Virus record (IMG/VR): IMGVR_UViG_2711768075_000012 | Coordinates: 1-21,846 of that record | Reading direction: 5' to 3' (one strand) | Source: a virus | Lineage: Duplodnaviria > Heunggongvirae > Uroviricota > Caudoviricetes | Length of the DNA stretch: 21,846 nt | Part shown: in pieces, positions 20,323 through 21,131 of the stretch | Layout: every line of letters begins with the position of its first letter | Numbering within the stretch: position 1 is the first letter of the stretch | Program-made: the position numbers and the translations under genes | Notes under the pieces: generated by a model | Database searches by the model: none | What the model saw: the letters and a program-made list of their open reading frames with translations, nothing else | Told to the model about the DNA's origin: nothing

Positions 20323-20766
20323 CTATTGCATCAACAATGAATGTCTTATCCACATTACGAGGGATGGAATAATTTTTATGTATCCGCCATATGCCCATAT
20401 AATGGTGCCAAAAACAGTTAGTCCAACCCCGAGTACTTCAGCTTTTATTTCCTCTCTGACCTCAACTCGAGCTTTAGCTAAGTTTTCTTCTCGTATCTTT
20501 TGTGATTCTTCCGCAGACAATGGCGGGCCAGTTACGCCACTGCGTGAATTAATTTCAGCTTCGCGATTAGATAATTTTTTTAAAGTTGTGAACTTGATTG
20601 TATACAACAATCCAAAAACTGAAATAATTGCACCTGAGCTGGCGAATAGATTCATATCATTAAGATATTGGCCGAACAAAAAGCTTGCTCCACAAAAAAC
20701 ACATAATATGGCAATGGATGTTTTTGCACCGAGTATTTTTAGTAATATTGTTCTAAATCTCTTCAT
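20323..20766 (-). CDS. hypothetical membrane protein with three predicted TM segments and a central charged region, 147 aa
   Basis: Hydrophobic stretches TSIAILCVFCGASFLFG, ASSGAIISVFGLLYTI and VLGVGLTVFGTIIWAYGGYI around a charged linker (SAEESQKIREENLAKARVEVREEIKAE). Downstream of and co-oriented with the RHH gene. Confidence 0.5.
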   Translation of the reverse strand: MKRFRTILLKILGAKTSIAILCVFCGASFLFGQYLNDMNLFASSGAIISVFGLLYTIKFTTLKKLSNREAEINSRSGVTGPPLSAEESQKIREENLAKARVEVREEIKAEVLGVGLTVFGTIIWAYGGYIKIIPSLVMWIRHSLLMQ

Positions 20767-20797
20767 TGTTAATATATCCTATCATAGAAGTAGTAAT

Positions 20798-20992
20798 TCA
20801 CCCCTTAGGTTCGATACCGCGCCGCTTTAGTTCGGAGCGCCCTAACTCTTTAAGCCAGTTAGCAAGGCTTACACCATCATTATTAGCCTCGCTATCAAAC
20901 TGTTCTTTCAGTTCTGGAGCTATACGCATATGGAAAGGGGGAGCCTTTCCTGTCCCTTTGGGTTTTTTATCGCGTTTAATTATTGTTGACAT
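20798..20992 (-). CDS. Arc/MetJ-type ribbon-helix-helix DNA-binding protein, 64 aa
   Basis: PPFHMRIAPELKEQFDSEANNDGVSLANWLKELG fits the RHH beta-strand/helix pattern of Arc-like repressors (compare P22 Arc PQFNLRWPREVLDLVRKVAEENGRSVNSEIYQRV, from memory). Its start codon abuts a palindromic operator. Confidence 0.55.
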   Translation of the reverse strand: MSTIIKRDKKPKGTGKAPPFHMRIAPELKEQFDSEANNDGVSLANWLKELGRSELKRRGIEPKG

Positions 20993-21050
20993 GTGTACAC
21001 CTATGGCGTTATGTTTTCATTCGATAGGTGTACACATTAACACGTGTGCA
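20985..21050. promoter_or_regulatory. divergent promoter/operator region: 14-bp inverted repeat ATGTGTACACCTAT ... ATAGGTGTACACAT (19-bp spacer) plus palindromes GTGTACAC and ACACGTGT; -35-like TTGACA at 20985-20990
   Basis: Left arm 20991-21004, right arm 21024-21037. TTGACA, then 17 bp, then TTATGT gives a plausible rightward promoter whose spacer is the left operator arm. The RHH start codon (minus) lies at 20990-20992. Confidence 0.5.
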
Positions 21051-21131
21051 TTTAATAACGCAACGCCCCGCAGTGCTGGAACACATGCAGGGCGTCTAAC
21101 CACCAACGATAGCAACAGTATCGAGGTAGCT

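Follow-up and report, generated by a model that had tools for sequence, protein, structure and literature searches.

A variable cargo slot behind an Arc-like repressor gene in a Gram-negative phage satellite, occupied by a candidate membrane defence gene

In phage P22, Arc and Mnt are small autoregulated repressors of the ribbon-helix-helix (RHH) fold whose inverted-repeat operators overlap promoters; Arc binds one 21-bp site as a tetramer, and in the immI region its gene is followed by that of an antirepressor. In phage lambda, the accessory and defence genes rexAB lie directly after the maintenance repressor gene cI and are expressed in quiescence, RexB being a membrane component. In Staphylococcus aureus pathogenicity islands (SaPIs) and other phage-inducible chromosomal islands (PICIs), the divergent regulator Stl (Rpr) stands at the border of the replication module, positioned to silence the island. 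The exclusion proteins T4 Imm, P22 SieA and HK97 gp15 are small, helical proteins of the inner membrane, produced constitutively from the resident element, which act singly and carry no enzymatic domain. Defence genes are also found in hotspots of P4-like satellites and among PICI-encoded immune systems (Rousset et al. 2022; Fillol-Salom et al. 2022, references listed in PMC13612085). Here we analyze a stretch of 21,846 nt, the IMG/VR virus record IMGVR_UViG_2711768075_000012 from position 1 to 21,846, referred to below as the window. It is a Gram-negative PICI, i.e., a phage satellite, inserted in terL, a late gene of a lambdoid prophage, and it carries a gene pair that recalls each of these systems in part: a gene for a 64-amino-acid (aa) Arc-like RHH protein, and behind it one for a 147-aa protein with three transmembrane (TM) helices. 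The two genes are as follows.

20798–20992, minus strand: Arc-like RHH repressor gene, 64 aa, a conserved satellite core gene, assigned by PHROG, profile and AlphaFold2 (AF2)/Foldseek comparisons
20323–20766, minus strand: cargo gene for a protein of 147 aa, predicted to span the inner membrane with three TM helices and to expose a charged helical hairpin to the cytoplasm

A preliminary description of this DNA, made from the sequence alone, had proposed a two-gene minus-strand operon of a 64-aa RHH protein and a 147-aa three-TM protein. Both open reading frames (ORFs) were recovered, 31 nt apart and with no terminator between them. The Arc-like nature of the RHH protein was likewise borne out: it matched PHROG 228 ‘Arc-like repressor’ at E = 9e-6, and a profile of 26 of its relatives, searched against all PDB sequences, found P22 Arc at E = 6e-4 and Mnt at 0.1. 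The fold is thus shared with Arc and Mnt at detectable sequence similarity. Foldseek searches with the AF2 model (predicted local distance difference test score, pLDDT, 78.5) gave best matches that were all Arc, with probability 1.00 and a template-modelling score of 0.73–0.84 normalised by target length, at E values of 0.065 and above; no match of the monomer reached E ≤ 0.001. The monomer model contains helices at residues 26–38 and 43–57 (pLDDT about 90), and residues 18–25 are extended without being assigned as a DSSP strand, as is expected of a model that lacks the dimer partner. Pfam HicB was matched below its 21-bit cut-off (18 bits, E = 0.0027), and NCBI labels some of the relatives ‘HicB family antitoxin’. 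Sequence similarity places the protein in the Arc/MetJ ribbon-helix-helix superfamily.

The RHH gene is conserved well beyond its present neighbour. Megablast with positions 20250–21130 against 5426 complete E. coli genomes returned matches in 421 of them, only 4 with a query coverage of at least 80%. In the partial matches listed, coverage starts at the RHH stop codon (window 20798–20808) and extends rightward at 85–89% identity, so that conservation extends over the RHH gene and the intergenic region but not over the membrane gene. The RHH gene was divergent from an operon of Icd-like, DUF4222 and primase (or AAA_25 helicase) genes in every relative examined. We also surveyed 80 IMG/VR loci encoding the RHH protein; many of these are near-identical and their lineages are not independent, and the counts given below are therefore counts of loci and not of events. 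The RHH gene stands alone in 11 of the 80 loci and in four further ones (L002, L024, L026, L027), and elsewhere it is paired with at least 10 unrelated downstream genes. It is therefore a core satellite regulator and not a dedicated partner of the membrane gene, and the idea of a dedicated two-gene module had to be given up, each gene being found without the other.

The intergenic region in front of the RHH gene carries the elements on which its proposed regulatory role depends.

20991–21004, no strand assigned: candidate proximal operator arm, covering the RHH Shine-Dalgarno (SD) sequence (AGGTG) and ATG, within the P_R spacer
21024–21037, no strand assigned: candidate distal operator arm, at about the P_R transcription start and overlapping the P_L −10
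20986–21015, plus strand: rightward promoter P_R, TTGACA-N18-TATGTT, matching 10 of 12 consensus positions and facing the Icd-like/DUF4222/primase operon
21034–21042, minus strand (read 21042 to 21034): probable leftward promoter P_L for the RHH and cargo genes, with the extended −10 TGTTAATGT

The perfect 14-nt inverted repeat that had been noticed before is formed by these two arms, which are 19 nt apart. Their 11-nt core, TAGGTGTACAC, occurs only as the two arm copies, both in the window and in the 28.9-kb stretch (L001) that holds the island; 0.18 matches would be expected by chance in the window, and two copies were seen in none of 100 shuffles. Both of the 8-bp palindromes that had been listed in addition to the repeat exist, and only one of them is additional: GTGTACAC lies inside each repeat arm, and ACACGTGT stands separately at 21040–21047. 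The TTGACA promoter had been assigned to the minus-strand pair. It lies on the plus strand instead, where it is directed toward the Icd-like gene at 21132.

Both promoters recur in related loci. The P_R −35 element is recognizable as TGACA(T/A) in 79 of 80 loci, and 16–18 nt away there is a hexamer whose second base is A and whose last is T, again in 79 of 80. The P_L motif [C/A]TG[T/A]TAA[G/T]GT adjoins the distal arm in about 78 of 80 loci, irrespective of the operator class. The TTGACA of P_R is at the same time the reverse complement of RHH codons 1–3 (ATG TCA ACn, Met-Ser-Thr; window 20986–20992). Ser2 is invariant across the RHH family, which this double duty of the first codons may explain.

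Across relatives, both repeat arms vary together (GGTGTACACC, GGTAC(A/G)CAC, GGTG(A/G)CCAC, GGTCTATAC, GGCATATAC), and at least five arm sequence classes track residue 21 of the RHH protein (H, Q, R/K, N and others). The pairings between the RHH strand and the operator arm are listed here.

F-H-M-R-I: operator arm TAGGTGTACAC
F-Q-(I/V/M)-R-I: operator arm TAGGTAC(A/G)(C/T)AC
F-(R/K)-M-R-I: operator arm TAGGTG(A/G)(C/T)CAC
F-N-V-R-I: operator arm TAGGTCTATAC
F-S-(I/V)-R-L: operator arm GGTCCATACA
L-P-I-R-I: operator arm TAGGCATATAC
F-Q-F-R-L: repeats of GTGTAATG

Aligned with Arc, residue 21 falls on Asn11 and the invariant R23 on Arg13, both of which contact bases in the Arc–operator crystal structure (PDB 1PAR). 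Since the arm classes co-vary with the residue aligned to Arc Asn11, the inverted repeat would be the RHH operator. Read as RNA, the same repeat could act mainly as a hairpin that hides the RHH SD sequence and AUG in read-through transcripts, instead of as a protein-binding site. A transcript running from 21050 to 20975 does fold at −22.1 kcal/mol (z = −3.7) with both SD and AUG within the stem. Such a stem would likewise predict compensatory change in both arms, and the differences confined to a single arm are all transitions, mostly leaving G-U pairs on the minus strand (about 13 versus 6 loci, which is not decisive). By the conserved promoters, however, the P_R transcript should begin near the distal arm and the P_L transcript within that arm, and neither would span both arms. 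The arms also coincide with promoter elements, and their classes follow the RHH residue that is aligned with a base-contacting residue of Arc. Covariation of this kind is expected of a protein–operator pair, whereas an RNA stem alone would not require it. We therefore regard the hairpin as an improbable main function, and on these comparisons the inverted repeat is most likely the operator of the RHH protein.

The likeness to P22 thus comprises the fold, the small size of the repressor and, as predicted here, autoregulation through an inverted-repeat operator overlapping promoters. The differences lie in the wiring. Two sites about 33 bp apart are found in place of the one 21-bp tetramer site, a membrane gene instead of an antirepressor gene stands behind the RHH gene, a divergent Icd-like/primase operon takes the place of mnt, and the element is a satellite where P22 is a phage. 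Of the analogy with P22 immI drawn in the preliminary description, the Arc-like fold therefore stands and the arrangement does not. The Bro-N gene, which had been cast as the ant-like partner, is convergent, lies beyond the terminator at 20282–20300 and is not behind this operator.

As a side observation on the RHH genes, one E. coli island (L016, 1664–2551) carries two of them in tandem, one of the FHMRI and one of the FQFRL type, each with its own operator and upstream hairpin region. The pair looks like the recombination product of two satellites.

Behind the RHH gene, the conserved sequence gives way to a slot whose content differs between satellites. In the window it is bounded as follows.

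20253–20797, no strand assigned: swappable cargo cassette (membrane gene and terminator), delimited by blastn against L005
20282–20300, no strand assigned: terminator-like hairpin, bidirectional, from a consensus scan of both strands; it would terminate transcription of the minus-strand operon as well as of Bro-N

The comparison locus L005 has the same Bro-N and RHH flanks. Alignment with it breaks off at window position 20252 and is taken up again at 20802, by the RHH stop codon; the interval is filled in L005 by another cargo (4457–4933), a 158-aa N-terminally anchored protein. The cargo proteins of this kind, 158–176 aa long in L005 and L041/L042, are anchored by a single TM helix at the N-terminus, from which a charged linker leads to a C-terminal domain that matched no family. 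In three other E. coli islands, the same position holds nothing, two tiny ORFs, and a 118-aa SWIM zinc-finger protein, respectively. In the survey of 80 loci, the slot starts 5–38 nt past the RHH stop codon and is co-oriented with the RHH gene, and its occupants were distributed as follows.

SWIM protein, 118 aa: 13 loci
Three-TM protein, as in the window: 7 loci
456-aa protein, PD-T7-1 (PADLOC, E = 2e-153): 6 loci
227-aa N-terminally anchored protein, putAbiC PF16872 (Pfam, E = 2.8e-16): 5 loci
241-aa protein: 4 loci
395-aa protein, DUF5677 (Pfam): 3 loci
180-aa protein: 2 loci
176-aa protein: 2 loci
No ORF of at least 50 aa: 11 loci

A 114-aa protein also follows the RHH gene in 3 loci, but at a gap of 137 nt, and the remaining surveyed loci have short or doubtful ORFs. 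At least 10 unrelated cargo families are found in this slot among the 80 loci. PD-T7-1 is an experimentally validated anti-phage defence system (bioRxiv 10.1101/2022.05.12.491691), and the SWIM protein has a weak match to the candidate system PDC-S62 (E = 1e-4). The slot is a recombination hotspot that holds different cargo in different satellites, and it shows what characterizes a defence hotspot: a fixed position between conserved genes, exchange of unrelated cargo and the presence of known anti-phage genes. The hotspots of P4-like satellites and the PICI immune systems share the fixed position and the swapped, unrelated cargo that includes known defence genes. They differ in place, the slot described here lying 3' of an Arc-like repressor gene in the Bro zone of Gram-negative and helper-embedded PICIs and not between psu and int.

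The occupant of the slot in the window is the 147-aa membrane protein. Hydropathy and charge agree with the three TM helices and the charged central region described before: hydrophobic segments span residues of about 6–36, 38–62 and 107–140, and the central 54-residue region contains 11 K/R. Because the N-terminus is basic, the TM1–TM2 loop slightly acidic and the 11 K/R are central, an N-in/C-out topology with a cytoplasmic central region is predicted. In the AF2 model (pLDDT 68), helices cover residues 16–34, 38–75, 85–126 and 134–145; TM2 is prolonged into a long helix, the chain reverses at a conserved SRSGVTGPP motif, and the helix leading back merges into TM3. As the preliminary description had it, the protein belongs to no recognized family, with none found in Pfam, PHROGs, NCBIfam or PADLOC; Pfam and PADLOC searches of 50 of its relatives gave nothing common or significant. 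A family profile searched against solved structures had best E values of 0.65–2.1, including a chance-level match to Csx28, and these candidates were rejected. The gene itself is real and under strong purifying selection: nonsynonymous differences (pN) amount to 0.10–0.21 per site versus 0.63–0.82 for synonymous ones (pS), and the corresponding rate ratio dN/dS is 0.03–0.12 in the three pairs with an estimable dS, synonymous sites being saturated in the other three. The protein is thus a member of an uncharacterized family.

Close relatives of the protein number 17, in Enterobacteriaceae and Xenorhabdus, and 69 cluster representatives were obtained at E < 1e-3; across the listed cluster members it is found on more than 1000 contigs, mainly of E. 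coli and Shigella sonnei. Other PICIs with other integration sites carry the gene at 70–81% identity in the same slot, after an RHH gene product of 51–61% identity. A Xenorhabdus island has a homologue between int and AlpA, with no RHH gene. On Acinetobacter plasmids of 7–24 kb, homologues of about 48% identity retain an STGVTGPP motif (L110, 3445–3843; L111, 4001–4396); their neighbours are BrnTA, RelBE and MqsA/SecB-like modules, and the upstream gene differs between plasmids. In distant bacteria the homologue is solitary and located in variable regions, where no conserved partner genes were found, the neighbours being toxin–antitoxin (TA) modules, transposases and unrelated ORFs. Some relatives (P0057, P0020/P0022/P0023, P0026) carry the three-TM module in fusion with an Mrr_cat restriction-endonuclease domain at the C-terminus (Pfam, E = 1.6e-25), with four extra N-terminal TM helices or with a Cys-rich N-terminal domain.

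Among viral proteins, no sequence or fold match to the membrane protein was obtained by PHROG, fold search or phage tblastn, the last returning 0 matches at E ≤ 0.01 in 50,697 phage genomes. This argues against close homology to SieA, provided that P22-like genomes are in that collection. Like T4 Imm, SieA and HK97 gp15, the protein is small, helical and predicted to reside in the inner membrane; it differs from them in being carried by satellites, islands and plasmids and in its long, conserved cytoplasmic hairpin. Separately, one PICI with a 70%-identical membrane gene (L007, 9796–13037) carries two RVT_1 reverse-transcriptase genes of 653 and 427 aa on its integrase side, which may be a defence-associated reverse-transcriptase pair.

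Considering the arrangement as a whole, we hypothesize the following mechanism. Dimers of the Arc-like RHH protein would bind two inverted sites of 11–14 bp, about 33 bp apart, one in the spacer between the P_R −35 and −10 elements and the other at the P_R start; their occupancy would shut off the early/replication operon and leave the satellite quiescent. The distal site also covers the extended −10 of P_L, and the RHH protein would in this way limit its own synthesis. Since the membrane gene begins 31 nt behind the RHH stop codon, with no terminator before it and one after it, the cargo is probably co-transcribed with the RHH gene and would be kept at a low steady level in quiescence, as rexAB is with cI. 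The 147-aa protein, predicted to lie in the inner membrane with its N-terminus inside and its C-terminus outside, would guard the carrier cell against incoming phages, as the location of its gene suggests. Compared with lambda cI-rexAB, the common features are an accessory or defence gene directly after the maintenance repressor gene, expression in quiescence and a membrane component such as RexB. The differences are that a single small gene is present with no RexA-like sensor, that the RHH protein is not a helix-turn-helix (HTH) repressor of the lambda type, that the slot takes many families and that co-transcription is, in our case, predicted from anatomy. Stl (Rpr) is comparable as a divergent regulator at the replication-module border, positioned to silence the island; the RHH fold is unrelated to it, and the protein is far smaller.

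Taken together, i.e., with the RHH protein silencing the satellite, the cargo made alongside it and the three-TM protein acting at the inner membrane against phages, this reading falls slightly short of an even chance in our estimation. Its regulatory part, considered alone, is probable. The exclusion or defence role that had been suggested for the membrane protein has gained real if indirect support from the finding that the same slot carries PD-T7-1 and putAbiC in sister satellites, and its gene is a good candidate for a new phage-defence gene by virtue of its location. As to the mode of action, we lean toward a non-lethal block of genome entry, of the superinfection-exclusion type, rather than an abortive-infection pore, in view of the small size of the protein, its lack of a sensor or partner and the constitutive expression expected of it.

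Several points weigh against this reading. Gram-negative PICIs have been described as transcribed rightward only, with no clear master repressor and with AlpA as an activator (PMC6092414), so that the principal control may be other than RHH repression. P_L agrees weakly with the promoter consensus and was missed by a simple scan, and the stable fold of the repeat transcript, given above, belongs here as well. For the membrane protein, PADLOC v2.0 assigned no defence model (best HEC-01B, E = 0.035, 11.9 bits), and fold searches with the model of pLDDT 68 returned only generic helical bundles. Most cargo families of the slot are of unknown function, and the label ‘defence hotspot’ rests on two recognized families.

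A broader proposal extends the same observations, and we consider it doubtful. On this view, a large subgroup of Gram-negative PICIs would have in the RHH protein the maintenance repressor that has so far been missing, with at least six co-evolving operator-specificity (‘immunity’) classes; the slot would be an undescribed defence hotspot of the quiescent state; and the three-TM protein would found a single-gene membrane defence family of satellites, islands and small plasmids, not of phages. Literature searches, within the library that could be searched, returned no description of this RHH protein, the operator classes, the cargo slot or the membrane family. An Arc-like gene with its operator on the replication promoter makes the question of a PICI master repressor directly testable, and from the operator and residue 21 classes it can be predicted which satellites would be heteroimmune. 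A short list of defence candidates, namely the three-TM family, the SWIM protein, the DUF5677 protein and several orphans, is obtained by inspecting what lies 3' of a single 64-aa gene. If a phenotype of the three-TM protein is found, it would be of practical relevance to phage susceptibility, given the spread of the family in E. coli, Shigella sonnei and Acinetobacter plasmids.

For the membrane gene, the alternative that survives best is that it is cargo of a non-defensive kind. Its product might be an orphan immunity protein directed at a membrane-acting bacteriocin or at a contact-dependent toxin, or a factor in membrane stress or host fitness, or the gene might be a selfish hitchhiker in a recombination hotspot. 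Small three-TM proteins on small plasmids are, in textbook terms, the typical format of immunity to pore-forming colicins, and homologues do occur on the 7–24-kb Acinetobacter plasmids. The lack of a recognizable sensor or enzymatic domain, the absence of a PADLOC match and the unknown function of most slot occupants fit this explanation too. However, no colicin or pyocin immunity family of Pfam was matched, and the neighbourhood contains no toxin gene; colicin immunity proteins have short loops, unlike the charged cytoplasmic hairpin of 54 residues predicted here; and the sole recognizable occupants of the same slot are anti-phage genes. We consider non-defensive cargo a serious possibility, though less likely than not.

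A second alternative assigns the membrane protein to the life cycle of the satellite or to interference with the helper, as a holin, an antiholin, or a factor in lysis timing or helper assembly and release. Three TM helices and the size of the protein resemble class I holins, and the satellite resides within its helper prophage; the holin family PF07332 was hit below threshold in 2 of 50 relatives (best E = 0.0046), with E = 0.48 for the protein of the window. The charged region is central here but C-terminal in holins. Moreover, none of the 50,697 phage genomes gave a match, and the gene lies not near lysis genes but in the satellite regulatory zone; it would be expressed with the repressor in quiescence and not late. 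It is present in a minority of otherwise similar satellites, which argues against a core life-cycle function, and its family also occurs on non-satellite plasmids. This explanation has a slim chance.

A TA-like module, in which the RHH protein would serve as antitoxin and autorepressor and the membrane protein as a depolarizing toxin released on infection or element loss, is highly improbable and was rejected because partner conservation fails in both directions: the antitoxin-first order, the palindromic operator at the promoter, the ‘HicB family antitoxin’ name and weak Pfam HicB match (E = 0.0027) of the RHH protein and the TA modules around membrane homologues speak for it, but the RHH gene is solitary in several loci or followed by at least 10 unrelated genes, the membrane gene occurs with no RHH gene in Xenorhabdus and on Acinetobacter plasmids among non-conserved neighbours, no HicA-like partner is present, and the operator is placed to shut off the divergent replication operon. 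RHH antitoxins such as HicB, the CopG type, AtaR and MazE do share the DNA-binding fold and appear among the lower-ranked Foldseek matches of the RHH protein; they differ in that the latter has no cognate toxin, toxin-binding extension or conserved partner, being just a 64-aa DNA-binding fold with short tails that leave no room for a toxin-binding domain. A gene that shares its transcript with one for an autoregulated repressor is also unlikely to encode the toxin under tight RHH control that had been suggested earlier.

The reading of the RHH gene as a satellite regulator is set in the following genomic context. The region of the window is 100% identical to one in E. coli UK_Dog_Liverpool (NZ_CP031653.1), where RefSeq gives the gene order int, small HTH (AlpA-like), Bro-N, the membrane and RHH genes on the minus strand, Icd-like, a 106-aa protein, DUF4222, primase, single-stranded DNA-binding protein and a protease–capsid fusion. 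Pfam and PHROG matches agree with this zone layout. The two genes that flank the slot and the intergenic region are located as follows.

19525–20106, plus strand: Bro-N gene
21132–21335, plus strand: Icd-like gene (RefSeq annotation), the first of the operon that the RHH operator would control

The island shows the zone order of a PICI: int and AlpA, a Bro zone, a replication zone with primase, and a late zone, with int reading inward. We assign it to the helper-embedded PICIs because its gene layout is the published arrangement of Integration, Bro, Replication and Late zones (PMC10111431, Tommasini et al. 2023). The pair of RHH and membrane genes falls where the Bro zone meets the Replication zone, and neither an RHH protein nor a membrane protein is mentioned in that work. 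The satellite int starts about 160 nt past a terL gene that is annotated as lacking its C-terminus (window 16855–19250; 10606–13001 in L001), and upstream of this truncated terL RefSeq annotates lambdoid Q, lysis genes and DUF1441. Beyond the window, on the right flank of the island, a second DUF1441 gene is followed by a truncated ORF and then by tail-fibre genes, and the RefSeq annotation there contains no remainder of terL. On account of this right-hand side, the helper prophage looks rearranged and may be defective.

Finally, a candidate RNA was noted over the leader of the Icd-like gene.

21055–21132, minus strand: tentative cis-antisense small RNA over the Icd-like leader and its SD sequence (GAGGT, 21123–21127), with two hairpins and, in most relatives, a U-run behind the second

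An Rfam scan of positions 17800–21846 found no family at the gathering score, the closest being a weak SymR-like match (E = 0.74), and no match to C4 or isrK (P4 CI-like) at E ≤ 1; matches to C4/isrK have been reported in some PICIs (PMC10111431). RNAalifold, applied to 19 relatives, showed compensatory changes in 13 of 17 base pairs. The tally per pair counted 46 G-U versus 2 A-C cells, for which reason an RNA transcribed from the minus strand is favoured over the leader of the Icd mRNA. An extended −10, TGGTATGAT, is present upstream of the candidate antisense RNA, reading from 21147 to 21139.

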